A stretch of 32,000 bases of DNA, taken from assembly GCA_038823825.1 (NCBI GenBank), contig JAWBCC010000001.1, positions 150,001 through 182,000 of the forward strand, given 5' to 3'. Positions 1 to 12,770 of this stretch are shown here, piece after piece. Positions within the stretch are counted from its first letter, which is position 1; every line of letters begins with the position of its first letter. This stretch comes from Candidatus Hadarchaeales archaeon. Its GTDB lineage: Archaea > Hadarchaeota > Hadarchaeia > Hadarchaeales > Hadarchaeaceae. The notes beneath the pieces were generated by a model. That model was not told the origin of the DNA and searched no databases. It saw only the letters and a program-made list of their open reading frames with translations. Made by a program: the position numbers and the translations under genes.

Positions 1-2394
1 AGAACAAATGAGAACGACCTGAGCGAAGTTTGGCTTAGAATCTGGTGGGAGAACATTTATGAAAACAATGTTGTTGAAAATGCCGCCGTGAGATATCGGA
101 TGTCAAAAGAAAGCTCGGATGGGACGTACGAATACTGGGTTACCACAATTCCCGCTCCGGGAAGGCCGGCAAGAATGTGGTATAGGTTCTATCTCGTTGA
201 CAACGGCGGAACGGGCACATACAGCTGGGACATCTGGCAAAATCCGGTGAATATAGGAACGCAGGTGGACATCGATAGTTACGCCGATGACACTTTTCCG
301 AGGAACGGAGGAACAGGAAAAATGTATGATTTTCCGCAAACTAGAACGGAGAGCACAGTTCAGCCTGTGGACAACTATGACTTCATGATCATCTTTTACG
401 AAAACATACCGCCAGCCGCTGTTTCTCTTATTTCGCCAGAGAACGACGCTTTGCTGACATCGGTTCCGACCTTACGCTGGACGGCGTCAGTAGATCCGCA
501 ACCATCCTCCGGTCTCGGATATCGCCTTCAGATTTCTAAAGTTTCCGACTTTTCCACAACTGTTGTTGATATATATGTGAAAGAAAACTCTTATCAGCCG
601 AGCATCGGAGAAGGAGTATACTTCTGGAGGGTTAGAGCAGAAGACTATGATGGAAACGCGAGCAACTGGTCGGAGGTCAGACGCTTTCGGCTAGATCTCG
701 GACCACCACCGGCTCCAACGCCGATTTCTCCGCCCGATAACTTCTGCACAAAAGAAAATCGAATAACCTTAAGCTGGACGAGAGTTCCGGATGCATCAGA
801 GCCGGTTCTGTATCGTGTCGCTCTGAGTGATGATGCAGGTTTTCCATACGAAAACTTCACATCCGGCTGGGTCATGGAGAATAGCTGGCAGGTTGAGCTT
901 CCCGAGGGAATATGGTACTGGAGAGTTTGCGCGAAGGACAACCTCGACCAGATCGGTGAGAATTCCGTGACCAAAAGATTTATCGTCGACATTACTCCAC
1001 CACAACCACCAGAGATCTTGTATCCTGAAAATGGTGAAAGCGTGAATGTGAGGAGACCAACACTCAGATGGTCGACTGTGACCGACGTAAGCATGCCTGT
1101 GACGTACGATCTTCAACTGAGTGGCTCCCCAACTTTCTCTACCCTTATCGTAGACAATTCTGGTCTCACGGAGAACTCGTATACTCTCACAATCGACCTA
1201 GAGGAAAGGGTTTACTACTGGAGAGTGAGAGCGAAGGACAATGCCGGAAATCTGAGTGATTGGGTTGTGTCCTCTTTCATTGTTGATCTCACGGCGCTAC
1301 CAGCCCCCACGGGCCTCTCCCCCACGGGTTTCATCAACACGAAAAGACCGCAGTTCCGTTGGTCTCCTGTACAAAGCATTTTTGATGTGGTGTACATCTT
1401 TGAACTCGATGATAGCCAAGACTTCTCAAGTCCTCTCGTGGTCGAAAACGCTCTAACAGATACTTCTTACCAGCTTCAGTTTGATCTATCAGATGGAAAA
1501 TATTATTGGAGGGTAAGAGCGAAGACAGAATTAAAAACGGGACCAGCGGCCAGCGCATCCTTTACGGTAGATACTATACCCCCATCAGCTCCAGAGATTT
1601 TGACATCCTTGCCGGCCAGCACTAGGGTTAGGAGATGGATGATAGTTGGAACAGCGGAGGCGAATGCAACCGTTCAGTGTTTTGTTAACGATTCCCTAGT
1701 TGCGGAAAATGTGGCAGAGAATGGAAGCTTCACGCTGTGGGTTACCTTCCAACTCGGACAGAATAGCGTAAAGTTCAGAGCCGTTGACAGAGCAGGAAAC
1801 GCGAGCGTCTTTACGTCTTCGATCGGAATTAAGGTTACCGGAGGACTCGGAATTCGTCTGACTGCAGACCGACTCCAAGCAGGAGTTGAGCGTGCCTTCG
1901 CACTAGTCGGATATCAAACAAGCATTCAAGAAATAAGAGTGAAGACAAATAAGGATGTCGCTGCTCCGGCGATTTACGTCGAAGAGCTTATGCCCTGGGA
2001 AAACTGGGTTGAAGTTCCTTTGCCCAAGCGTGCAAAGGTTTACCGAGTCTTCGTCGTGGAGTCTACCGTACCTGCCGGAGATATCGCAGAAGTGAAGTTT
2101 TCTTTCAGGGTCGAGCTCAGCTGGCTCGAGAAGAATGGACTCTCGACACGTGACATAAGGTTATTGCGTTATGACGGAGACTGGAAGGAAATATCCACCA
2201 GTTATGCCGGGAAGGACGCCACTTACGCATATTACTCGGCTAAAGCAACCGGGCTGTCTTGGTTTGCCATCACTTCACCGCCATCAACACCTCTAATAGA
2301 ATACGTCACAATTGCTGTTCTCTTCTGCGTAGGTGCAGTAGTCGGTTTCTTCCTCAGCTCAAAAATTTTCAAAAGGTCGGGAAAACGTCAATAG
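1..2394 (+). CDS. Cell-surface repeat protein, 5'-partial: 4x 'YYWRVRA' beta-sandwich modules, an Ig-like segment, a PGF-pre-PGF-type domain and a C-terminal TM anchor
   Basis: Frame 1 has no stop from nt 1; RTNENDLSEVWLRIWWENIYENNVVENAA precedes the GTG at 88. There is no SD or signal peptide at 88, so the true start probably lies upstream of the window. Four ~97-aa tandem modules each end in [YFW][YFW]WRV[RC]A.D..G..S.W. A PGF-pre-PGF-like block is present (VKFSFRVELSWLEKNGLSTRDIRLLRYDGDWKEISTSY..YAYYSAKATGLSWFAI). A P/S/T linker follows, then a TM helix (VTIAVLFCVGAVVGFFL) and a basic tail (KRSGKRQ). Confidence 0.85.
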   Translation, partial: RTNENDLSEVWLRIWWENIYENNVVENAAVRYRMSKESSDGTYEYWVTTIPAPGRPARMWYRFYLVDNGGTGTYSWDIWQNPVNIGTQVDIDSYADDTFPRNGGTGKMYDFPQTRTESTVQPVDNYDFMIIFYENIPPAAVSLISPENDALLTSVPTLRWTASVDPQPSSGLGYRLQISKVSDFSTTVVDIYVKENSYQPSIGEGVYFWRVRAEDYDGNASNWSEVRRFRLDLGPPPAPTPISPPDNFCTKENRITLSWTRVPDASEPVLYRVALSDDAGFPYENFTSGWVMENSWQVELPEGIWYWRVCAKDNLDQIGENSVTKRFIVDITPPQPPEILYPENGESVNVRRPTLRWSTVTDVSMPVTYDLQLSGSPTFSTLIVDNSGLTENSYTLTIDLEERVYYWRVRAKDNAGNLSDWVVSSFIVDLTALPAPTGLSPTGFINTKRPQFRWSPVQSIFDVVYIFELDDSQDFSSPLVVENALTDTSYQLQFDLSDGKYYWRVRAKTELKTGPAASASFTVDTIPPSAPEILTSLPASTRVRRWMIVGTAEANATVQCFVNDSLVAENVAENGSFTLWVTFQLGQNSVKFRAVDRAGNASVFTSSIGIKVTGGLGIRLTADRLQAGVERAFALVGYQTSIQEIRVKTNKDVAAPAIYVEELMPWENWVEVPLPKRAKVYRVFVVESTVPAGDIAEVKFSFRVELSWLEKNGLSTRDIRLLRYDGDWKEISTSYAGKDATYAYYSAKATGLSWFAITSPPSTPLIEYVTIAVLFCVGAVVGFFLSSKIFKRSGKRQ
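406..1590 (+). repeat. Four tandem protein-level repeats (~97 aa, ~290 nt each) of the YYWRVRA module
   Basis: Repeat cores: PTLRWTAS..YRLQISKVSDFS..GVYFWRVRAEDYDGNASNWS; ITLSWTRV..YRVALSDDAGF..GIWYWRVCAKDNLDQIGENS; PTLRWSTV..YDLQLSGSPTFS..RVYYWRVRAKDNAGNLSDW; PQFRWSPV..YIFELDDSQDFS..GKYYWRVRAKTELKTG. Each is separated by Pro-rich linkers (PPPAPTP, PPQPPE, LPAPTG, PPSAPE). Confidence 0.85.
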
Positions 2395-5300
2395 TTTGAC
2401 CTCCGTAGCCTACGTAATTGGCTCCAATGCTCCATCGCTCGTCGTTTATGAGGGGTTTGAACTCGAATCTCTGACCATCTGGGATTTGGTTCGTCTCCCA
2501 GACCCAGATGTTTCCCTCAGTCCAGGTTGCTGGTAGCCCGACGCTCCAGGAAAGAGGAGGCGTGTCTCCTCTTATGTAGATTGAATTTCCCCACCCAACG
2601 TCGTAGTGAACTCTGATCGTTGTCGTTGAATAAGTCGGCTGCGGAGGTGGAGCACCTCTCGAATAATTCTCGCGTACCACGTTGGAGTAAATCTTTCCTT
2701 CCTTTGCGCTCAAGCTTACAGTTATTTTTCCATCGCTTCCAACTGTCACTTTGTCGTCCGTGTTCAGCAAGTTAACAAGCTCTGTGCCCGGTGGCAGCGG
2801 AACGGAAATGGAGAGAGTTCTGTTACTCCAAGAGTTATTCAAGATGACTATCGCTTGTTCGTTTTGATAAACTCTGCGGTAGGCGTAAACGGAAGTTTCT
2901 TTATAAAGTTCATACTGTGGGCCGCGCGAGATTGCTGGATATCTCTGTCTTATTTCGTTCAACCGTTTTATGTGGAGATATATCGGCGTCATGTTGAAGG
3001 ATGGCATCATCCCCCTGTTGTTTGGATCCGCTCCACCGGAAAGTCCTTGCTCTGTGCCGTAGAAGAGAGAAGGAACGCCACGGCACGTTAGGAGGAACGT
3101 CAGCGCAAGCTTCAGTCTCTGGTTGTCTCCACCTGCTACATACAAGAATCTCTCAATGTCGTGGCTCTCGAAAGATGTAACCAAACGAGATGGATTGGGA
3201 TAGTTGATATCCTGCGCGAGAATCGAAGAAATTCTGTCAAAAGATTGCTCACTGGCGAAGACATCTCTAGCGGCAAACATGAGTGGGAAATCCTGAAAGC
3301 CCCAGAGTGGACCGTCTTTCCAGTGTTGCGCTAGAACTGATGGATCTCCATACCAAGATTCCCCGAAGCACGGAATCCCCACGTTTTCTTGGAATTCTCT
3401 TCTAAAGTTATCCGGTACATGTTTACTCGCATCAAATCTAAACGCGGCAAAGCCGACCTCATTCTTCCAGTAGTTATAAACCTTGAAAAGCTCCAATTTC
3501 ACTTCCGGAATTTCCTGAGCGAGGTCGTCCAGTCCTCCCCACACATTTGGCTGTCTTATGTTGCCTCTGAGGTCATGGTAGATCCTCTGGAATGGGTCAT
3601 CCCAATCTTCAATGTGTCCATAGTTGTGATACCACTGCAAATTGTCGAAGGGTGGAGCAGGCTTGAGTTCCGGTGACCGAGTTTCGTCTCTATTTCTCCA
3701 ACGTCGCGTACCGGGAGCATCATACAGAAAGTCTCCCGTATGATTGGGTATAGCTTCGGTCACAACCGCAATCCCCATATCGCTCGCTTTTCTCACCAGC
3801 TCTTTCAACTTTTCCAAATCTCCGAAGTGAGGCTCGGGTTTATAGAAGTCGTACGGCCAGTAGCCGTGATATCCAGCCGAGTTTCCAGGAACGTCTAGCC
3901 ACTGGTTCCAATGTACGGAAGATATCCAGATCGCAGTTACTCCGAGGTGCTTGATGTACGCCAGCTTGTCTATGATCCCCTGCCAGTCGCCACCCTGATA
4001 GAAGAAGAGGTTGCCGGGACGGTATTCTCCATAACCAAAGTTGTCATTAGATGGATCTCCATTCGCAAACCTATCAGTCATGATCTGATATATCACATCG
4101 CTCTCGTCGAAAATGTTGTCAGATCGGCGCTCGAAGAGGCTTATTCCTCTACATTTGTTTGGTTTTCTTATCCTAAGGAGATCTGCGACCGTCGGTGCAA
4201 TGTCAACGATTTCTGCTCCGAGGACTTTTCTTTTCTCTATGCCCGACCCGGAAACGATGATGGGAATAGCCATGTCTCCAAGTTCTATGCTCCCATGATT
4301 GGTCCCTGTCATCCCATGATCGCTGACAATTATGAGGATTGTGTTTTCATAGAGTCCCAAATTTTTCAGATTCTCCACAAGTATTCCAATCGCCGCATCC
4401 GCTCGCTCTATAGCTTGCCTATACTGTTGGCTTTCATGACCATAACTGTGCCCGGTTGAATCGACCATCGGAAGAAGAACAAACATTAAGGTTGGTTTAT
4501 GCTGGATGAATATCTTGATCGCGTTTTCCATTACTCTGATGTCAGCATATGGATCCCCTATCGCACGGTAGTCCACATCGTTCTTGACCCAAGTTACGCC
4601 TCTTTCCAGTCCAGCTATCCTGCCGCCCTTCCCGTCGAGGAGAGCAGTTCGATAGCCGTAACTTTCAGCAACCTCAAAAATCGTTTCTGCCTCTAAAGTG
4701 TCTCCAGAGGTTTCGTAACAATGATCCTCAGGATATGCTCCTGTGAAGAGTGATGCGTGAGCTACCGGGGTGGTGGACGGGTAAACCGTCACACCGAGCC
4801 AGTTATAGAGAGCGTTTTCGGCGAGCATGTCTATGTAAGGCGTGTTAGCTTCCAGAAGAATATCGGGACGACATCCATCTATGGTGATGATTATGACGTG
4901 TTTTCCAAATTGTAATTGCACATTTTCTGCGAGGACGGTAAAGGTCCAGATCGCCGACCATTCTCGAGCAACATTTTCCACTACCCTCGCAACTCTCCAG
5001 AAGTAAACGCCCGGAGAAAGCTGTAAAATCAGGCTGTTTTCAGCAAGCAGAAGATTCTCGATTGGAACGGAGAAATCGTCAAGTCCGCTGAGCTGGAAGA
5101 GGTAGGAAGCATCATTCTCTCCAACCCACGTGAAGAAAATAGTGTTTTCTGTCAGTATGGAACCGTTTTCAGGCAGAAGCAGGAAGAGAGTTGGAGGAAT
5201 ATTTTCCACAGCCACCCTAAAGTTCCATATGCTTGACCATTTGCCAATTCTACCCGCGTTCTCAATTCTGACCCTCCAGTAGTAGGTGCCGGGGGAAGGC

Positions 5301-5857
5301 AGGCTAATCTGCATTGAGAAAGTGTTTACGAGATTATCCACTATCGGATTCTGGAAGAGAATGGATGTGGCAACTTGAACCCTGAAGGAAACATTTTGCG
5401 GTCCACTCCATCCAAGAGTCACTGTCAGCGAACGAATTTCGGCGGAATTCTCAGGACTTTGCAGAGTTGGTATAACCGGTTCGTAGACAACTATTCTTCT
5501 AACGTCTGACCAGGAGCTGAAATCTTTTCCTTTTTCTGTTCTGACTCTCCAGTAGTAGGTACCCGGTCCAGGTAAGTGTAAGGAGACATTTCCGGTTTCT
5601 AAATCCTCGAATTCCATCAGAATCGCGGAAAAGTTCTGATCTTGGCTGATTTGTACCCTGTATTTCACTCCCTCCATAATCGCCCAACTGAGAGTAATCT
5701 GTTCGTTCTCTGTTTCGAGAAGATCGGGCGTGAGAACATAAGGCGGGGAGAGCGTGACTTTCCCTTTAGACATCAAATAAAAAGAACCGCTGATTGAAGC
5801 AGCGACACAAACCAGCGAAACGGCTATCGCAAGCCATTTCTCCAACGATCTCCCCAC
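2369..5857 (-). CDS. Secreted or membrane-anchored multidomain enzyme: 3x YYWRVR modules, an NPP/alkaline-phosphatase-superfamily phosphodiesterase, a GH13 alpha-amylase catalytic domain and a C-terminal CBM20-like beta-sandwich
   Basis: GTG start followed by an N-terminal hydrophobic signal/anchor (WLAIAVSLVCVAASISGSF). NPP motifs: VIIITIDGCRPD, YPSTTPVAHASLFTGAYPEDH, VDSTGHSYGH, VSDHGM. GH13 regions: YQIMTDRFANGD, EAIPNHTG (I), AFRFDASKHV (II), FGESWYG (III), FESHDIERF (IV). C-terminus: IRVHYDVGWGNSIYIRGDTPPLSWSVGLPATW..NIWVWE..FEFKPLINDERWSIGANY, which resembles a starch-binding module. Confidence 0.85.
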   Translation of the reverse strand: MGRSLEKWLAIAVSLVCVAASISGSFYLMSKGKVTLSPPYVLTPDLLETENEQITLSWAIMEGVKYRVQISQDQNFSAILMEFEDLETGNVSLHLPGPGTYYWRVRTEKGKDFSSWSDVRRIVVYEPVIPTLQSPENSAEIRSLTVTLGWSGPQNVSFRVQVATSILFQNPIVDNLVNTFSMQISLPSPGTYYWRVRIENAGRIGKWSSIWNFRVAVENIPPTLFLLLPENGSILTENTIFFTWVGENDASYLFQLSGLDDFSVPIENLLLAENSLILQLSPGVYFWRVARVVENVAREWSAIWTFTVLAENVQLQFGKHVIIITIDGCRPDILLEANTPYIDMLAENALYNWLGVTVYPSTTPVAHASLFTGAYPEDHCYETSGDTLEAETIFEVAESYGYRTALLDGKGGRIAGLERGVTWVKNDVDYRAIGDPYADIRVMENAIKIFIQHKPTLMFVLLPMVDSTGHSYGHESQQYRQAIERADAAIGILVENLKNLGLYENTILIIVSDHGMTGTNHGSIELGDMAIPIIVSGSGIEKRKVLGAEIVDIAPTVADLLRIRKPNKCRGISLFERRSDNIFDESDVIYQIMTDRFANGDPSNDNFGYGEYRPGNLFFYQGGDWQGIIDKLAYIKHLGVTAIWISSVHWNQWLDVPGNSAGYHGYWPYDFYKPEPHFGDLEKLKELVRKASDMGIAVVTEAIPNHTGDFLYDAPGTRRWRNRDETRSPELKPAPPFDNLQWYHNYGHIEDWDDPFQRIYHDLRGNIRQPNVWGGLDDLAQEIPEVKLELFKVYNYWKNEVGFAAFRFDASKHVPDNFRREFQENVGIPCFGESWYGDPSVLAQHWKDGPLWGFQDFPLMFAARDVFASEQSFDRISSILAQDINYPNPSRLVTSFESHDIERFLYVAGGDNQRLKLALTFLLTCRGVPSLFYGTEQGLSGGADPNNRGMMPSFNMTPIYLHIKRLNEIRQRYPAISRGPQYELYKETSVYAYRRVYQNEQAIVILNNSWSNRTLSISVPLPPGTELVNLLNTDDKVTVGSDGKITVSLSAKEGKIYSNVVRENYSRGAPPPQPTYSTTTIRVHYDVGWGNSIYIRGDTPPLSWSVGLPATWTEGNIWVWETNQIPDGQRFEFKPLINDERWSIGANYVGYGGQTIDVFPTF
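4922..5752 (-). repeat. Three tandem YYWRVR modules at the N-terminus of the amylase fusion, the same family as in the neighbouring gene
   Basis: ITLSWAI..YRVQISQDQNFS..GTYYWRVRTEKGKDFSSWS; VTLGWSG..FRVQVATSILFQ..GTYYWRVRIENAGRIGKWS; IFFTWVG..YLFQLSGLDDFS..GVYFWRVARVVENVAREWS. Confidence 0.8.
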
Positions 5858-5875
5858 AATTTTGTGTTCAGATGT

Positions 5876-5925
5876 TCTATTAATCGTTTCGCAAAATTTT
5901 TCGCAGTTTACTCCATTTTTAAATA
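5876..5925. promoter_or_regulatory. Compact divergent promoter region: two TATA-like boxes flanking a TTTCGCA-N5-TTTCGCA direct repeat
   Basis: 'tctattaat' (5876-5884; reads ATTAATAGA on the minus strand) lies ~23 nt from the GTG at 5857. 'tttttaaata' (5916-5925) lies ~30 nt upstream of the glgA ATG at 5954. TTTCGCA occurs at 5887-5893 and 5899-5905, a 12-nt period. Confidence 0.4.
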
Positions 5926-5953
5926 GGTTTAGCGGTTAGTTTTGTGGAGGATC

Positions 5954-7117
5954 ATGAGAATAGGGGTATTGAGCTGGGAATCCCTTTACACGCTGCAGGT
6001 TGGAGGACTGGGAGTAGTCGCGACAAGGCTCTGCGAAGAGCTGGCAAAAGCCGGCCACGAGGTTTACATGTTCACGCGTGGAGCTCCCGGACAACCGAGC
6101 TACATGTACATAAACGGCGTGAACTATTACATCTGCGAATTTGATCCCGGTATGAACTGTGTGCAGTTTGCATATAACATGTCCATGTCGATGGTGAAAA
6201 CTCTCCGGGAGGTCGAGAAATATGAGGGCAAGTTTGACATAATTCACGGACATGACTGGATGGTTGTCGATGCGCTAGATAAACTCAAGAAAGAGGGATA
6301 TCCCGCCGTGCTTACTTTCCATTCCACAGAATACGGAAGAAATGGTTCAAAGTTTGGTGATTGGTGGGAATTCCGTGAAATCTCGAAGAAAGAGTGGTGG
6401 GGTGGACAGATCTCGGATGTGGTGACTACCGTCTCGAACGCGATGAAAGGCGAGTTGAACTGGTTATATAAAATTCCTATGAACAAAATCGAAGTAATAC
6501 CTAATGCCGTCGATCCGGCAAAGTATCAGCTAAACGTAGATCCGGCTGAAGTCAAAAAGAGATACGGAATAGATCCCTCCTCTCCCGTGATTCACTTTGT
6601 GGGCAGAATGGAATATCAGAAAGGACCGGATCTTCTCGTCGAGGCAATACCGAAAGTCTTAGAGGCCCATCCCCAAGCTAGATTCATATTTTCCGGGAGC
6701 GGTGGCATGAAGGGCTACCTCGAGCAGAGGGCCAGAGAACTGGGAATTTCGCATGCCACCAGATTTCTCGGTTTTGTTCCTTATCGCGAGTTTCTAGAAA
6801 TATTGAACGCCTGCGATATCGTTTGCTTGCCGAGCAGAAACGAGCCATTTGGGATAGCTCTCCTCGAAGCTTGGGCGGCCGGTAAGCCTGTTGTTGCAAC
6901 GGATGTTGGGGGTTTGGGAGAGAATATAGAAAACTTTGTAGATGGTGTAAAAGTATTTCCATGGCCTGAGTCTATTGCTTGGGGGATAAACTATCTGCTC
7001 GAGTCTGCAGACGGAAGGGAATTTGTGGCTCGTGGTGGAAGAGAAAAAGTTAAAAAGTTTTCATGGGCTAACTCTCTCGCTAAATTGCTCAAGGTCTATG
7101 AAAGAGTGCTCGGTTGA
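5954..7117 (+). CDS. glgA: Glycogen/alpha-glucan synthase (GT-B, GT4/GT5-like)
   Basis: [41 protein letters not shown] is an N-terminal (K/Q)xGGL-type motif. The C-terminal EX7E region is [32 protein letters not shown] 5954 is preferred over the track's TTG at 5942. Confidence 0.8.
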
Positions 7118-7121
7118 GAAA

Positions 7122-9035
7122 ATGGCAACCGTGAGGCACGACGTCAGCCGCTTCACGGATTACGACATCTATCTCTTCAAGCAAGGAAATCATTTCAAGA
7201 TATACGACAAACTTGGATGTCATCTGATGGAAGCAGACGGAGAAAAAGGTGCATACTTTGCTGTTTGGGCACCAAATGCTGAAAGGGTTTCCGTAATTGG
7301 AGATTTTAACGGTTGGAAGCCGGGCATCCATCCGCTAGCTCCGCGCTGGGATGCATCAGGGATCTGGGAAGGGTTCATTCCAGGTGTTAAGAAAGGCGAT
7401 CTCTACAAATATCACATTGAGTCAAAGTTCGGTTATAAAGCAGACAAGGCGGATCCGGTAGGTTTTTACCATGAGGTTCCGCCGAAAACCGCCTCGATAG
7501 TTTGGGATCTTGACTACAAGTGGGGTGATGATGACTGGATGAGGGAGAGAAGTAAGAAGAACTCGTTGGATGCCCCGATTGCGATTTACGAGGTTCATTT
7601 GGGTTCTTGGAGACGAGTTCCGGAGGATGGCAACAGATTTCTGACCTACAGAGAGTCTGCCAAACTTCTTGCCGATTATGTCGAGGACATGGGCTTCACT
7701 CACGTTGAACTTCTTCCAGTAATGGAGCACCCACTCTATGGCTCTTGGGGATATGAAATCACTGGTTATTTTGCTCCGACATCGAGGTACGGAACACCAC
7801 AAGATTTCATGTTTTTTGTGGATTATCTCCACCAGCGCGGTATAGGAGTATTTTTGGATTGGGTTCCCTCTCACTTTCCGATGGACGGCCATGGTCTCTA
7901 TTTCTTCGACGGAACACATCTCTATGAGCACGCAGATCCGAGAAAAGGGATTCATCCAGACTGGAAGACGGCAATCTTCAACTATGGTAGATATGAAGTG
8001 AGAAACTTTCTCATAAGCAGCGCTCTTTTCTGGCTTGACAAATATCACGCTGATGGTCTGAGAATAGACGCCGTGGCGTCCATGCTTTATTTGGATTACT
8101 CCCGCAGAAACGGTGAGTGGATTCCAAATGAGTACGGGGGTAAAGAAAACCTAGAAGCGATATATCTCATCAGAAGATTGAATGAAATTGTTTACTCGAG
8201 CTTTCCAGATGTCCAGATGATTGCGGAGGAGTCAACCGCTTGGCCGATGGTCACCAGACCAACTTATGTTGGCGGTTTAGGCTTCGGAATGAAGTGGAAA
8301 ATGGGTTGGATGCATGACACTCTCTTCTATTTCTCAAAGGATCCAATCTATCGAAAATATCATCACGACCAGCTTACTTTCAGCATGTGGTATGCTTATA
8401 CGGAGAATTTCATCCTTCCGCTTTCTCACGACGAAGTGGTTCACGGGAAGAGATCTCTTCTAGAGAAGATGCCGGGAGATGATTGGCAAAAGTTTGCCAA
8501 TCTGAGGCTTCTCTATGCCTACATGTATTCCCATCCAGGAAAGAAGCTTCTTTTCATGGGAGGGGAGTTTGGTCAGAGACGGGAATGGAACCATGAAGAG
8601 AGTTTGGACTGGCATCTCCTTCAATATGAGAGTCATGCGGGAGTCCAGCGATGGGTCAGAGATCTCAACAAATTTTACAGATCTGAGCCAGCGATGCACG
8701 AGTTGGATTTTGACCTCCAAGGATTTGAATGGATAGATTTCAGTGACTGGGAGAAAAGCATAATATCATACATCAGAAAGGGAAAATCTACAGAAGACAT
8801 AATACTGGTGGTTCTCAATTTCACTCCCGTTCCTAGGTATGATTACCGGGTGGGTGTTCCGAGAGGAGGTTTCTGGGAAGAAAAGCTGAACAGCGACGCG
8901 AAAGAGTATTGGGGTTCTGGAGTTGGCAACCTTGGAAGGGTTCAGGCCGAAGAGACCCCATTTCACGGAAGACAATATTCTGTGCGTCTGACCCTTCCTC
9001 CGCTTGCTGCGATTTTCCTAAAATCTTCAGGGTGA
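7122..9035 (+). CDS. glgB: 1,4-alpha-glucan branching enzyme (GH13, CBM48 N-terminal)
   Basis: [21 protein letters not shown] (CBM48-like); [40 protein letters not shown] (GH13 regions I-IV of GlgB). ATG 7122 lies 4 nt after the glgA stop. The track's 7023 start overlaps glgA and adds a non-homologous extension. Confidence 0.9.
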
Positions 9036-9042
9036 TGTTTTC

Positions 9043-11298
9043 ATGAAATACATTTGCATCCATGGTCATTTTTACCAGCCACCCAGGGAAAATCCATGGC
9101 TTGAGGAAGTTGAGACCCAAACTTCTGCGTATCCATATCACGACTGGAATGACAAAATAAACTCCGAGTGTTACGCCCCCAACGCCTTTGCCCGCTTTAT
9201 CGACGGAGATTTTGTGAGCAATTACGAATTCATGAGTTTTGATTTTGGTCCAACCCTCTTGAACTGGCTGGAGAGGCATTCTCCAGAAGTTTATGAGAAG
9301 ATCTTGAGCGCCGACGGAAAATCCCAAAAGAGATTTTCTGGCCATGGTTCGGCAATTGCTCATCCATATTTCCATGTGATTCTCCCTCTTGCCAATGACC
9401 TTGACAAGCGCACAATTGTTGCCTGGGGTGTGCGGGACTTCGAAAGAAGATTTGGCAGAAAACCTGAAGGAATGTGGCTTCCGGAAATGGCTGTGGATCT
9501 GAAGACTTTAGAAATCTTGGCTGATTTCGGGATAAAGTTTACCATTCTCTCACCTCACCAGGCTAAAAGGGTGAAATATGCGGGCAAAGGGTGGCAAGAA
9601 ACAGGTGGTAGAATTAATCCGAGAATTCCGTATGTCTGCAGACTTCCATCAGGCAGGGAAATGTTCATTCTTTTCCGCGATGATGTTATTTCAAACGATG
9701 TCGCATTCGGCGGCCTAGCCAAAAACGGTCAAGAATTGGCTAAAAGACTGGAAAATTCTGTCTCAGATTCTGAAATCGTTTTGGTTGCCGTAGATGGAGA
9801 AACATTTGGTCATCACACGCCCTGCGGTTCTCGGGAACTCTCCAAGTGTGTAGAGGTCCTATCCGGGAAAGATAATGTACAGCTCACGATACCGGCTGAG
9901 TATCTAGAACATAATCCCCCTAGGGCGGAGGTAGAAATTCGCGAGAACACTTCTTGGAGTTGTTTCCATGGCGTGGAAAGATGGAGGAGAAACTGTGGGT
10001 GTAACACCGGCATGCATCCCAATTGGTCGCAGGAGTGGAGGGAGCCTCTGCGTAAGGCGATGGAATGGCTCAACAGGCATCTTATCGAAATATATGAGTG
10101 TTTTTCGTCGGAATATCTCAAGGATTCGTGGGCTGCCAGGGATGATTATATTGAAATATTGGCGGATAGAAGCCCAGAAAACATTGAGAAGTTCTTCTCC
10201 AAGCACGCTCGCAGAAGATTGACCCAAGAGGAGAAGATCAAGGTTACTCTGCTGCTCGAAATGGAGAGGCAGGCGATGCAGATGTTTACAAGTTGTGGCT
10301 GGTTCTTCGATGACATCTCAGATATCTCGTCGATCCAAATACTCTCACAAGCTTCTAGGGCGATGCAGCTGGCGAGGCAGGTTACGGGTATATATCTTGA
10401 GGGAAGCTTCTTGGAAATTCTAAAGGAAGCCAGAAGCAACATTTCACAATTCGGAAACGGTTCCATGATATACCGCAATGTTGTGCTCCCCCTGAAGACC
10501 GATCTGAAAAGAGTTGCGGCAAATTTTGCTCTAATTTTCCTGCAGTCCGAATATCCAAATTCCTTCAAGTTTTATGTTTACAGAATTGAGAACAAGTTGC
10601 ACAATGATGTTCAAAAGGACGGGCATAGGCTAGTGGCTGGCCGGATGAAGATCTCCAGCGAAGCAACCCTCGAGCAGGAGGAGTTAGACTTTGTTGCCTT
10701 GAGAAGCAACACTATGCTCGCCTGGATCTCCAAAGCTGGGAGCTGGAATCTAGACGGAATTCTCGAGCTTTTCTTAGAGAATGGGGCGGGTGCTGTTATC
10801 AGCTATTTCCGCAGATCTGGGGAAAGGGAGCACACCATTTCTGAACTGTTCGACGAGGAGCGAAGAGAGATGTTCACACGTCTTCTCGATTCAGAGCTTC
10901 TCATGGAACTCCGAAAATCTCTCATGAGGTTGAAATTTGTCGAGCAGGGATTTCTCTCCGGAGTTCGTCTGTTGTGGCTACTCGCTCTTCTTTCTGAACT
11001 GAGGGGAGCAGTGGAAAAGCTAGATTTCGAGAAAGCAAGATCTACACTCCTCGAGCTCCGGCAAGCCGGTTTTGAGCCATGCATAGAGCAGGTTTCTCTG
11101 ATGAGACAAAAGCTTCGTGAGTTAATCGCATCCTCGGACGTAGAAAAGTTGGAAAAGATGATCGACCTACTCGACATGGTCCGACCAGGTGTTGACGAAT
11201 GGCTGGTAAGAACTTTTGCCATTCGCAAGCTTCACACCGGAAGTTCCGGAAAAGAGGCTGAAATCCTGCGAAGGATACTGGGTGGTGGCATATGCTGA
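9043..11298 (+). CDS. GH57-family glycoside hydrolase with a long helical C-terminal extension (DUF3536-like architecture)
   Basis: N-terminal CIHGHFYQPPRENPW. Candidate nucleophile region PEGMWLPEMAVD and acid/base region VAVDGETFGHH. The ~350-aa C-terminal region is Leu/Glu-rich. The start is 7 nt after the glgB stop. Confidence 0.8.
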   Translation: MKYICIHGHFYQPPRENPWLEEVETQTSAYPYHDWNDKINSECYAPNAFARFIDGDFVSNYEFMSFDFGPTLLNWLERHSPEVYEKILSADGKSQKRFSGHGSAIAHPYFHVILPLANDLDKRTIVAWGVRDFERRFGRKPEGMWLPEMAVDLKTLEILADFGIKFTILSPHQAKRVKYAGKGWQETGGRINPRIPYVCRLPSGREMFILFRDDVISNDVAFGGLAKNGQELAKRLENSVSDSEIVLVAVDGETFGHHTPCGSRELSKCVEVLSGKDNVQLTIPAEYLEHNPPRAEVEIRENTSWSCFHGVERWRRNCGCNTGMHPNWSQEWREPLRKAMEWLNRHLIEIYECFSSEYLKDSWAARDDYIEILADRSPENIEKFFSKHARRRLTQEEKIKVTLLLEMERQAMQMFTSCGWFFDDISDISSIQILSQASRAMQLARQVTGIYLEGSFLEILKEARSNISQFGNGSMIYRNVVLPLKTDLKRVAANFALIFLQSEYPNSFKFYVYRIENKLHNDVQKDGHRLVAGRMKISSEATLEQEELDFVALRSNTMLAWISKAGSWNLDGILELFLENGAGAVISYFRRSGEREHTISELFDEERREMFTRLLDSELLMELRKSLMRLKFVEQGFLSGVRLLWLLALLSELRGAVEKLDFEKARSTLLELRQAGFEPCIEQVSLMRQKLRELIASSDVEKLEKMIDLLDMVRPGVDEWLVRTFAIRKLHTGSSGKEAEILRRILGGGIC

Positions 11299-12770
11299 AG
11301 AGAGGAAGTGGAATTGTTTTACACGTATCTTCCTTACCTGCAGAATTTGGTGTGGGAGATTTTGGCTCCAAATGCCTAGAATTTCTGGATTTCTTAGCCG
11401 AGGCCGGTCAGAGGATTTGGCAGGTTTTGCCGCTTACGCCAACAGATCCATCAACAGGGAATTCGCCGTACGTGAGCAGTTCCCTCTTTGCAGGAAATGA
11501 GCTTTTAGTTAGTCCAGAACTTTTGGCTCGCGATGGTCTTCTAGATCTCTCACAAATCTCCTATTTACCACACGGACCAGTCGACTATCAGACCGTCACA
11601 GATTTAAAGAGGAAAATCTTAGATAAGGCTTTCTCGAATTTTGGCGAAAAGAAGGAACTGGAAGAATTTGCTGGACAGAACTCCTACTGGTTGGAAGATT
11701 ATGCGCTTTTCACGGTTCTCAAGCGGAAATTCGGGACTGAATGGAGCAGATGGCCAAAGGAAGTTAGAGAGAGAAACTGGAAGGTTCTTCAAAGCATTAG
11801 ACTCGAAAAACAGAAAGAAATAAAACGCGTGATTTTCGGTCAGTACATTTTCTTCAAGCAATGGGAAGAAATTAGGCGAAGGTGTAAAGAATTAGGGATA
11901 AAGATTTTAGGAGACATACCTATATATCCCGCATACGATAGCTGCGATGTCTGGGCTCATCCGGAACTCTTCAAACTTGACGAGAGGCTGCTGCCTACGC
12001 ACATTTCTGGTGTTCCTCCAGATTATTTTTCCCCGACCGGACAACTTTGGGGAACTCCCGTCTATAGGTGGTCGGAACACGAGAAAGATGGTTTCGCCTG
12101 GTGGTTATCTAGAGTAGAGCATGCCTTGAAACTCTTTGATTTGGTCAGAATAGATCACTTTAGGGGTTTGGTGGCGTACTGGGAAGTAGAAGCTGGACAG
12201 ACGACAGCGATCAACGGCAGATGGGTCCCAGCTCCAGCAGAGAAACTTCTCAGTCGTGTCAAACAGAAATTCCCTGAAATGCCGTTTGTAGCTGAGGATC
12301 TGGGCGTGATAACCTCAGATGTCGTTGAGGTCATTAAAAAATTCAACTTACCCGGGATGAGAGTCCTGATCTTTGGATTCGGTGACGATTTTCCAGAGAG
12401 CATTCATTTACCTCACCGCTTTGACGAACACTGTTTGGCGTACACGGGGACCCACGATACGAACACCGTTCGAGGCTGGTTTGAGAATGAAGCGAATCCT
12501 CAAGTTAGGAGCAGAGTTTTCCATTACTTGAGAAAGGAAGTAAAATCAGATGAGCTCCCCTTCGAGTTCATCAAATTGGTCATGTTTTCCAGAGCTCTAG
12601 TCTCAATGATTCCTGCCCAAGATCTGCTTGGACTCGGAAGCGAGGCGAGAATGAACGTTCCCGGAACGGCGAGCGGAAATTGGAGGTGGAGGCTTTTACC
12701 TGGACAGCTGACGAGAGAACTTGCAAAGAAACTTAGAGAGCTAACCGAATCTGCAGGCAGAACGGGTTAA
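11292..12770 (+). CDS. malQ: 4-alpha-glucanotransferase (amylomaltase, GH77)
   Basis: RGSGIVLHVSSLPAEFGVGDFG; catalytic-triad contexts VRIDHFRGL, FVAEDLGV, AYTGTHDTN. ATGCTGA start/stop overlap with the upstream gene. Confidence 0.9.
   Translation: MLKRGSGIVLHVSSLPAEFGVGDFGSKCLEFLDFLAEAGQRIWQVLPLTPTDPSTGNSPYVSSSLFAGNELLVSPELLARDGLLDLSQISYLPHGPVDYQTVTDLKRKILDKAFSNFGEKKELEEFAGQNSYWLEDYALFTVLKRKFGTEWSRWPKEVRERNWKVLQSIRLEKQKEIKRVIFGQYIFFKQWEEIRRRCKELGIKILGDIPIYPAYDSCDVWAHPELFKLDERLLPTHISGVPPDYFSPTGQLWGTPVYRWSEHEKDGFAWWLSRVEHALKLFDLVRIDHFRGLVAYWEVEAGQTTAINGRWVPAPAEKLLSRVKQKFPEMPFVAEDLGVITSDVVEVIKKFNLPGMRVLIFGFGDDFPESIHLPHRFDEHCLAYTGTHDTNTVRGWFENEANPQVRSRVFHYLRKEVKSDELPFEFIKLVMFSRALVSMIPAQDLLGLGSEARMNVPGTASGNWRWRLLPGQLTRELAKKLRELTESAGRTG

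Follow-up and report, generated by a model that had tools for sequence, protein, structure and literature searches.

Why should an archaeal surface alpha-amylase carry a phosphoesterase in the same polypeptide chain, and do the two need each other? This question is raised by a gene at positions 2369..5857 of a 32,000-nucleotide stretch (hereafter, the window) of assembly GCA_038823825.1 of an uncultured, heat-loving Candidatus Hadarchaeales archaeon (contig JAWBCC010000001.1, positions 150,001 to 182,000), part of a genome of 1.05 Mb that is 95.8% complete (G000). The 1162-aa frame had been recognized in a first-pass annotation made from the letters alone, which gave no strand; the frame is confirmed, and it lies on the minus strand, as an uninterrupted run of 1162 codons plus a stop, with orthologues of 1152–1159 aa in independent assemblies, while the plus-strand reading of the same interval has stops throughout. 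Residue numbers refer to this 1162-aa protein, and AP denotes its alkaline-phosphatase-superfamily domain. We propose, with a probability of about one half, that the protein is an anchored ectoenzyme of two functions, a surface amylase that has captured a generic, minimal ecto-phosphoesterase resembling the nucleotide pyrophosphatases/phosphodiesterases (NPPs), the two activities being co-located and not obligatorily coupled.

The fusion itself is a real and very rare pairing. In a collection of 5.8 billion proteins, the combination of PF01663 and PF00128 is present only in P0002 (the cluster of the window protein), P0003, P0004 and the 5'-truncated P0005, four clusters that are all confined to one small Hadarchaeales clade, and in a library of representatives at 50% identity the combination is found in a single cluster. 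The first-pass annotation had allowed that the architecture might turn out to be common, and this is clearly not the case. Full-length fusions are encoded by two of the 41 related genomes (G000 and G003) and were not found in G001 and G002, which belong to the same genus and in which the glgA neighborhood is differently arranged and synteny is uninformative as to the fusion. The closest amylases (P0006–P0017, 45–61% identical) have no AP domain. An assembly chimera can be ruled out, as the same architecture has been assembled independently four times, in G000, in G003, in a Logan contig of identical synteny and in a JGI contig. No characterized or solved counterpart was found in the PDB or in the literature, and literature searches on amylase-phosphodiesterase fusions, Hadarchaeota amylases and COG1524 yielded no relevant paper, in agreement with the earlier statement that no characterized amylase with an in-line phosphodiesterase was known.

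As to the nature of the phosphoesterase, the AP domain (residues 318–580, about 260 aa; 4118..4906, minus strand, as for all the features of the protein given below) is a compact relative of the NPPs. It matches PF01663 (Phosphodiest) with an E-value of 2.4e-29 and 103.5 bits, versus a cut-off of 23, and in a phmmer search of the PDB it matches the Xanthomonas NPP 2gsn with an E-value of 1.2e-16, with the ligands aligned, and the profile match has an E-value of 3e-33. The four NPP motifs quoted in the first-pass annotation are all in place, IDGCRPD at 326–332, PSTTPVAH at 360–367, VDSTGHSYGH at 465–474 and SDHGM at 512–516. Compared with the enzyme of Xanthomonas axonopodis, D327 corresponds to D54, T363 to T90, D466 to D210, H470 to H214, and D513/H514 to D257/H258; the seventh residue, H521 (in TNHGS), missed earlier, corresponds to H363 by the family profile alignment. 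The set of seven metal-binding and nucleophile residues is complete, none being substituted, and these residues are invariant or nearly so in the family. The AlphaFold2 model of the domain, built with 29 homologues, has a predicted local distance difference test score (pLDDT) of 96, and in Foldseek it matches the NPPs 2gsn and 7n1s with an E-value of about 1.5e-17, a probability of 1.00, and TM-scores of 0.79 relative to the query and 0.57 relative to the target. The domain shares with the NPPs (the X. axonopodis enzyme and ENPP1-7) the AP-superfamily core, the Thr nucleophile and the six metal ligands, but it is only about 17% identical to them and about 120 residues shorter, and it belongs to a separate family marked by its own invariant residues, D408, K410 and R413 (in DGKGGRI). 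Three other assignments were considered and rejected. One is a sulfatase: PF00884 (residues 337–561) matches more weakly than PF01663, the formylglycine motif CxPxR/SxPxR is absent, the sequence being PSTTPVAH instead, and the best folds are those of NPPs. The others are a phosphoglycerate mutase (the Metalloenzyme family, matching within 337–564) and PglZ, for which the matches are likewise weaker than PF01663 and the best fold matches are again NPPs.

The NPP core had been described as complete-looking, and this holds for the catalytic residues but not for the structure, which is minimal. In the alignment of the family profile to the NPPs, two insertions are absent, one of about 100 aa separating DHG from the last His, and one of about 20 aa following the HG motif, and the low target TM-score of 0.57 is due to the lack of these approximately 120 residues. 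In the NPPs, these insertions build the nucleotide/leaving-group pocket, and an Asn contacts the phosphoryl group. With the pocket insertions missing, the active site of the AP domain is probably open and broad. This bears on a strict NPP role for the domain, in which it would be a phosphodiesterase/pyrophosphatase with nucleotides, dinucleotides, or fragments of extracellular DNA or RNA as substrates, set free by the necromass that also provides the glycogen. Such a role, which would be a sub-case of the phosphoesterase function that we propose and not exclusive of it, is consistent with the best sequence and fold matches all being NPPs (the Xanthomonas NPP and ENPP1/3/4/5), with a Thr nucleophile and a two-zinc ligand set as in these enzymes, and with the lack of a 5'-nucleotidase-C match in G000, one of four families checked there. 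However, the very segments that form the nucleotide pocket are absent, the fold match covers the target only to a TM-score of 0.57, and the window contains no linked genes for nucleoside/nucleotide uptake or salvage. Of the more specific roles discussed here, we regard this one as the least probable.

The amylase half is more conventional. The (beta/alpha)8 barrel with domain B of glycoside hydrolase family GH13 occupies residues 585–980 (2918..4105) and matches PF00128 at residues 591–943 (E-value 3.9e-46, 158.7 bits versus a cut-off of 22), so that both halves of the fusion are supported above the curated Pfam thresholds. All four conserved regions are present (AIPNHTG, 702–708; FRFDASKH, 806–813; FGESW, 831–835; FESHD, 896–900), along with the D/E/D triad of nucleophile D809, acid/base E833 and stabilizer D900, as had been noted in the first-pass annotation. 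Residues H706, R807, D809, E833, H899 and D900 align to those of the Anoxybacillus amylase and are invariant in the seven closest aligned relatives. Thus, judging by residues (seven of the NPP type and six of GH13), both catalytic centers of the window protein are intact, as that annotation had also proposed.

The closest sequence matches of the amylase are with subfamily GH13_45 (Anoxybacillus ASKA/TASKA, 5a2a-c; Geobacillus thermoleovorans GTA, 4e2o; Bacillus aquimaris BaqA), with E-values of about 1e-67 for 5a2a/5a2b, and 5a2a and 4e2o are also the best fold matches of the full model in Foldseek, with a target TM-score of 0.89 at 31–34% identity. The catalytic triad and the conserved regions are common to both, with the fifth conserved sequence region (CSR-V) reading GLPDLAQE in the subfamily versus GLDDLAQE in the fusion. 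One signature of GH13_45 is a pair of tryptophans, Trp201-Trp202, in helix alpha3 (PMC11301243), and its signatures further include LPDlx in CSR-V and an elongated C-terminus with five conserved aromatics (PMC11301243, PMC11448133, PMC4791539). In the fusion, the pair is replaced by Y796-W797, the LPDlx motif by L776-D777-D778-L779-A780, with Asp in place of Pro, and the five-aromatic tail by a linker and a CBM20-like domain that follow domain C. Because the signatures are present only in part, this amylase appears to be GH13_45-like without being a member of the subfamily, from which it also differs in being archaeal and in possessing an N-terminal anchor, three repeats, an AP domain and the CBM20-like tail. 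Another group to be considered is the five-domain cyclodextrin glucanotransferases (CGTases) and the maltogenic amylase Novamyl (GH13_2; 1cdg, 1pam, 1qho), in which domains A/B/C are followed by beta domains ending in CBM20, an arrangement resembling that of the fusion with its CBM20-like tail. These give sequence E-values of 1e-55 to 1e-60 and the top Foldseek E-values, with about 710 columns aligned, but they are only about 25% identical, no equivalent of their domain D has been established in the fusion, and none of them carries a phosphoesterase.

Beyond the barrel, domain C (residues 983–1060; 2678..2911) is recognized by matches to PF22026, PF02806 and PF09260 at 983–1057 and by beta strands in the model. 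The C-terminal domain, previously described as starch-binding-like, is a CBM20-like beta-sandwich (residues 1079–1162; 2372..2623), and here the earlier assignment needs to be softened. The CBM_20 match (PF00686, residues 1079–1141; E-value 3e-3) scores 17.7 bits, under the curated cut-off of 23.3, and a profile of 10 tail copies finds starch-binding domains of amylases and glucoamylases as its top PDB matches with E-values of 0.06–0.6 only. Related amylases with PF00686 in their records have between one and three copies of the domain, arranged in tandem. Binding of starch by this tail is thus weakly suggested.

Where does the AP module come from? When 1.84 billion cluster representatives (50% identity) were searched exhaustively with HMMER, 2,098 proteins matched at an E-value of 1e-10 or lower, mostly of 270–550 aa. 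The closest are stand-alone, compact archaeal "alkaline phosphatase family proteins" (P0123–P0147), from Hadarchaeaceae, Woesearchaeota and MSBL1 metagenome-assembled genomes, which are 44–61% identical over the whole AP domain and possess the same invariant residues as the fusion. At 270–365 aa, they have a signal peptide or a lipobox of their own at the N-terminus, and the Hadarchaeal proteins also have a membrane helix at the C-terminus, by which they appear to be membrane-anchored ectoenzymes. No characterized member was found among them. The contexts of the stand-alone genes are mutually unrelated (a phosphoenolpyruvate carboxylase/TIM/RuBisCO cluster, an arginine operon, an array of beta-helix surface proteins), and a tblastn analysis of the flanks of nine independent AP-family loci revealed no GH13, GH57, GH77, glycogen synthase or branching enzyme.

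The AP module has also been joined to other partners, including purple acid phosphatase, NosD/beta-helix, CBM96, PA14/CHB_HEX_C, sulfatase, GT2 and BNR repeats. One example is P0178 (951 aa), in which a purple acid phosphatase (Pur_ac_phosph_N and Metallophos) accompanies the AP domain, giving two different phosphoesterases on one chain, which supports phosphate scavenging for at least part of the family. Another example is a gene at 7001–9328 of locus L027 (JGI 3300037598, Ga0314843_0000110), encoding a 775-aa protein with an AP domain (59% identical) and a NosD/parallel-beta-helix part, standing in a row of four to five genes for beta-helix surface proteins. The same metagenome also contains the stand-alone P0127 and the GH13-fused P0005. 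Of a different kind is an AP homologue in one related genome that matches as two permuted pieces in one 356-aa frame (L009/L110, G026:C35:3596-4381), the piece matching query residues 134–262 being upstream of that matching 2–126. This order could be a circular permutation, a remnant of a tandem or a misassembly, and P0131 and P0132 show a similar pattern of matches in two stretches.

Is the AP site of the fusion under selection? To define its constraints, 50 family-invariant positions were taken from an alignment of the window AP domain with 16 stand-alone proteins. Of these, one is changed in P0004 and none of the 35 covered in the more distant P0005, versus 10 in P0003, including H367I, K410T, R413E, D466G, H470R and H521C and four others, three zinc ligands being among these changes. 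The amylase next to this decayed site is intact. In AP-domain identity, the pair P0001–P0004 stands at 80% and the pairs with P0003 at 68–69%, while the GH13 domains are 85–89% identical in all three pairs of P0001, P0003 and P0004. Likewise, the AP domain has a rate of nonsynonymous substitution (dN) of 0.145 when G000 is compared with G003 and of 0.24 in the comparison with P0003, versus 0.07–0.10 for GH13, and AP dN on the G000 and G003 branches is approximately half of that on the P0003 branch. As synonymous divergence is saturated, also in the neighboring glgA, dN/dS values per domain are unusable, and these comparisons are of dN and residue conservation alone. By these measures, the window AP site is as canonical as those of the free-standing enzymes and has been preserved although the proteins have diverged considerably. 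In P0003, K410 and R413 have gone together with the zinc ligands, which suggests that these two residues are part of the catalytic apparatus.

These data need to be weighed against the possibility that the AP domain is mainly a structural spacer, a pseudo-enzyme that props or positions the barrel, with a site that is a decaying relic. P0003 fits this well, since it has changed 10 of the 50 invariant positions (D466G, H470R and H521C included) and yet keeps the domain at 68% identity, with GH13 at 89%. In addition, in P0006, an amylase-only relative, a fourth repeat occupies the slot that the phosphoesterase fills in the fusion, and the junction of the AP and GH13 domains is rigid in the model. 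However, the catalytic residues have been kept in the window protein, in P0004 and in P0005, across GH13 divergence down to 66% identity, which is unexpected for a relic, the slower AP evolution on the G000 and G003 branches points the same way, and the AP domain is the only PF01663 member of the genome. We consider the spacer unlikely as the main function, if the least unlikely of the alternatives.

Another alternative is that the two activities are coupled, the AP domain stripping C6/C3/C2 phosphate monoesters from alpha-glucans or phospho-oligosaccharides and so unblocking the attached amylase, as would an AP-superfamily analogue of the glucan phosphatases of the dual-specificity phosphatase (DSP) type, SEX4, LSF2 and laforin. 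The structure offers some encouragement. The full-length AlphaFold2 model has a pLDDT of 86 and a predicted TM-score of 0.71, with confidence below 50 in the linkers at 311–317 (repeat 3 to AP) and 1069–1073 (domain C to the CBM20-like domain), but at 85–94 across the AP-to-GH13 junction, where the end of the AP domain (...LFERRS) directly abuts DNIFDE, the start of the amylase in the relatives devoid of AP, with essentially no linker. With such a confident and linkerless junction, the two domains likely form one rigid body. A CBM20-like module is part of the same chain, the site, devoid of the NPP pocket insertions, should be open enough for a polymer, P0003 has lost K410 and R413 along with its zinc ligands, as would fit residues that bind a phosphate monoester, and some related AP modules occur on one chain with carbohydrate-binding parts (CBM96, PA14, CHB_HEX_C, beta-helix).

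On the other hand, none of the nine AP-family loci is flanked by genes of alpha-glucan metabolism, the stand-alone proteins look like generic anchored ectoenzymes, and the scaffolds to which the module is fused are unrelated. The intact amylase of P0003, next to a dead AP site, implies that amylolysis does not require phosphoesterase chemistry, and the closest amylases, P0006–P0017, do without an AP domain altogether. The resemblance to SEX4, LSF2 and laforin is limited to the proposed logic, of a phosphatase with a starch-binding module clearing phosphate for amylolysis (background in PMC13666283): these enzymes have a dual-specificity phosphatase fold with a Cys nucleophile, versus the Thr and two zinc ions of the AP superfamily, they act inside eukaryotic cells, are not joined to amylases, and share no homology with the fusion. 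According to a 2026 review (PMC13666283), glucan phosphatases of the laforin type are lacking in prokaryotes, the phosphate of Escherichia coli glycogen amounts to only about 0.9 nmol per mg, and the generality of glycogen phosphorylation in prokaryotes is uncertain, which makes a phosphoglucan substrate less probable a priori in this habitat. Overall, the action on phosphorylated alpha-glucans that was put forward in the first-pass annotation is neither supported nor refuted, and we view the coupled function, and with it the analogy to the DSP enzymes, as distinctly unlikely. Somewhat less likely still is the fullest form of this idea, in which the AP domain would be a new glucan-phosphate esterase, held rigidly against an alpha-amylase, and a single surface enzyme would both dephosphorylate and depolymerize phosphorylated alpha-glucans. 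Were this true, it would be the first prokaryotic, extracellular, non-DSP glucan phosphatase, and phosphorylated glycogen or starch would be a significant substrate in hot anoxic habitats.

It seems more likely that a co-located pair of activities serves general scavenging at the cell surface. The protein would be membrane-anchored and outward-facing, and its GH13 part, most like the Anoxybacillus/Geobacillus GH13_45 enzymes and the CGTase/maltogenic-amylase group, would act as a retaining endo-alpha-amylase that, with the CBM20-like tail, cleaves alpha-1,4-glucans outside the cell (starch, or glycogen derived from necromass). What it releases may feed an adjacent island of surface amylase and ABC importer and the divergent intracellular glgA-glgB-GH57-GH77 operon. 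The minimal NPP-like domain, placed between the three stalk repeats and the barrel, would use its two-metal site and Thr nucleophile, most likely still hydrolyzing extracellular phosphate esters (mono- or diesters) and freeing phosphate for uptake. It has presumably descended from the stand-alone, membrane-anchored archaeal ecto-phosphoesterases (homologues 45–61% identical), borrowing the anchor and the stalk of the amylase in place of its own. The gene inventory of G000 fits such extracellular phosphate acquisition, within the four families checked, as the AP domain of the fusion is the sole PF01663 match, with no stand-alone copy of the family, no match to PhoA, PhoD or 5'-nucleotidase-C was obtained, and a PstS-like phosphate-binding protein is present.

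A number of points weigh against this proposal. The phosphoryl-binding Asn of the NPPs is not conserved, the positions aligned with it being T387/S388. The tight junction of AP and GH13 could equally mean functional coupling. P0003 keeps the AP domain devoid of its catalytic residues, so the domain is probably also structural. The distribution of the AP family is patchy, with presence in 10 of the 41 related genomes, and so the family is not essential. The four families checked in G000 do not exhaust the possible phosphatases. Finally, the activity and the substrate of the compact AP family are inferred.

While both halves of the protein come from well-known superfamilies, no joined form is known to have been characterized or solved. 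Should both sites be active, this would be a natural, single-chain and probably thermostable enzyme for starch depolymerization and phosphate-ester hydrolysis, of relevance to the processing of phosphorylated starches, such as potato starch. The fusion also bears on how streamlined subsurface archaea (genomes of about 1 Mb) load several scavenging functions on one anchored scaffold. The clade presents a natural experiment, with three lineages possessing an intact phosphoesterase site and one a decayed site, and the comparison can show whether the two halves cooperate. The compact AP family, in turn, represents uncharacterized, minimal NPP-like ectoenzymes in more than 2,000 clusters, whose small size makes them attractive for studying the evolution of specificity in the AP superfamily.

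The N-terminal part of the protein consists of an anchor and a stalk. The predicted signal/membrane anchor (residues 2–29; 5771..5854) is made up of a charged n-region and then about 21 hydrophobic residues, and it is modeled as a single helix. The three repeats reported earlier as YYWRVR modules are all present, at residues 41–134 (5456..5737), 135–226 (5180..5455) and 227–316 (4910..5179), each all-beta in the model, but the exact motif is found in two of them (101–106 and 192–197), the third having a variant, VYFWRV (284–289). Pfam coverage of the module is limited to a partial DUF4962/Ig-like match, the N-terminal piece of DUF4962 matching repeat 1 with an E-value of 1.5e-9, and a sequence search of the PDB with the three repeats gave no match. 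Beta-sandwich modules of this kind, of about 90 aa, are very abundant across the order, arranged in tandem in frames of 2,000–7,900 aa (G015, G022, G025, G029, G034 and others), and the module appears to be an unnamed repeat of archaeal surface stalks.

The gene may start at GTG 5857 or, alternatively, at TTG 5845, four codons on, which matches the first residues of the orthologues in the alignment. It shares a divergent intergenic region of 96 bp (5858..5953), with AT-rich TATA-like elements, with a glgA-like gene. One putative promoter element, TTAATA (5878-5883, minus strand), is 21–26 nt ahead of the fusion GTG, and another, a perfect archaeal TATA-like TTTAAATA (5918-5925, plus strand), is about 29 nt ahead of the glgA-like ATG (5954). 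If this region acts as the promoter for both genes, as we infer, then the spacing of the elements points to transcripts with little or no leader on both sides. The divergent operon (5942-12770, plus strand) is tightly packed and encodes a GT4/5 synthase, a GH13/CBM48 branching enzyme, a GH57+DUF3536 protein and a GH77 protein; the synthases of G000 and G003 share 94% identity, with synonymous sites saturated nonetheless.

On the other side, the convergent neighbor (window 1-2394, plus strand) is the C-terminal part of a frame of about 2021 aa that extends upstream of the window (G000:C1:146650-152394). It possesses four more YYWRVR repeats and a further GH13 match, 31% identical to fusion residues 605–1050, and its 3' end overlaps that of the fusion gene by 26 nt. 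The order of genes in the P0003 contig is the same as in the window, with the divergent glg operon kept (GT4/5 synthase, branching enzyme, GH57/DUF3536, GH77), a large convergent surface protein overlapping by 17 nt, and then a sugar ABC transporter. The closest public proteins carry Hadesarchaea/Hadarchaeaceae names.

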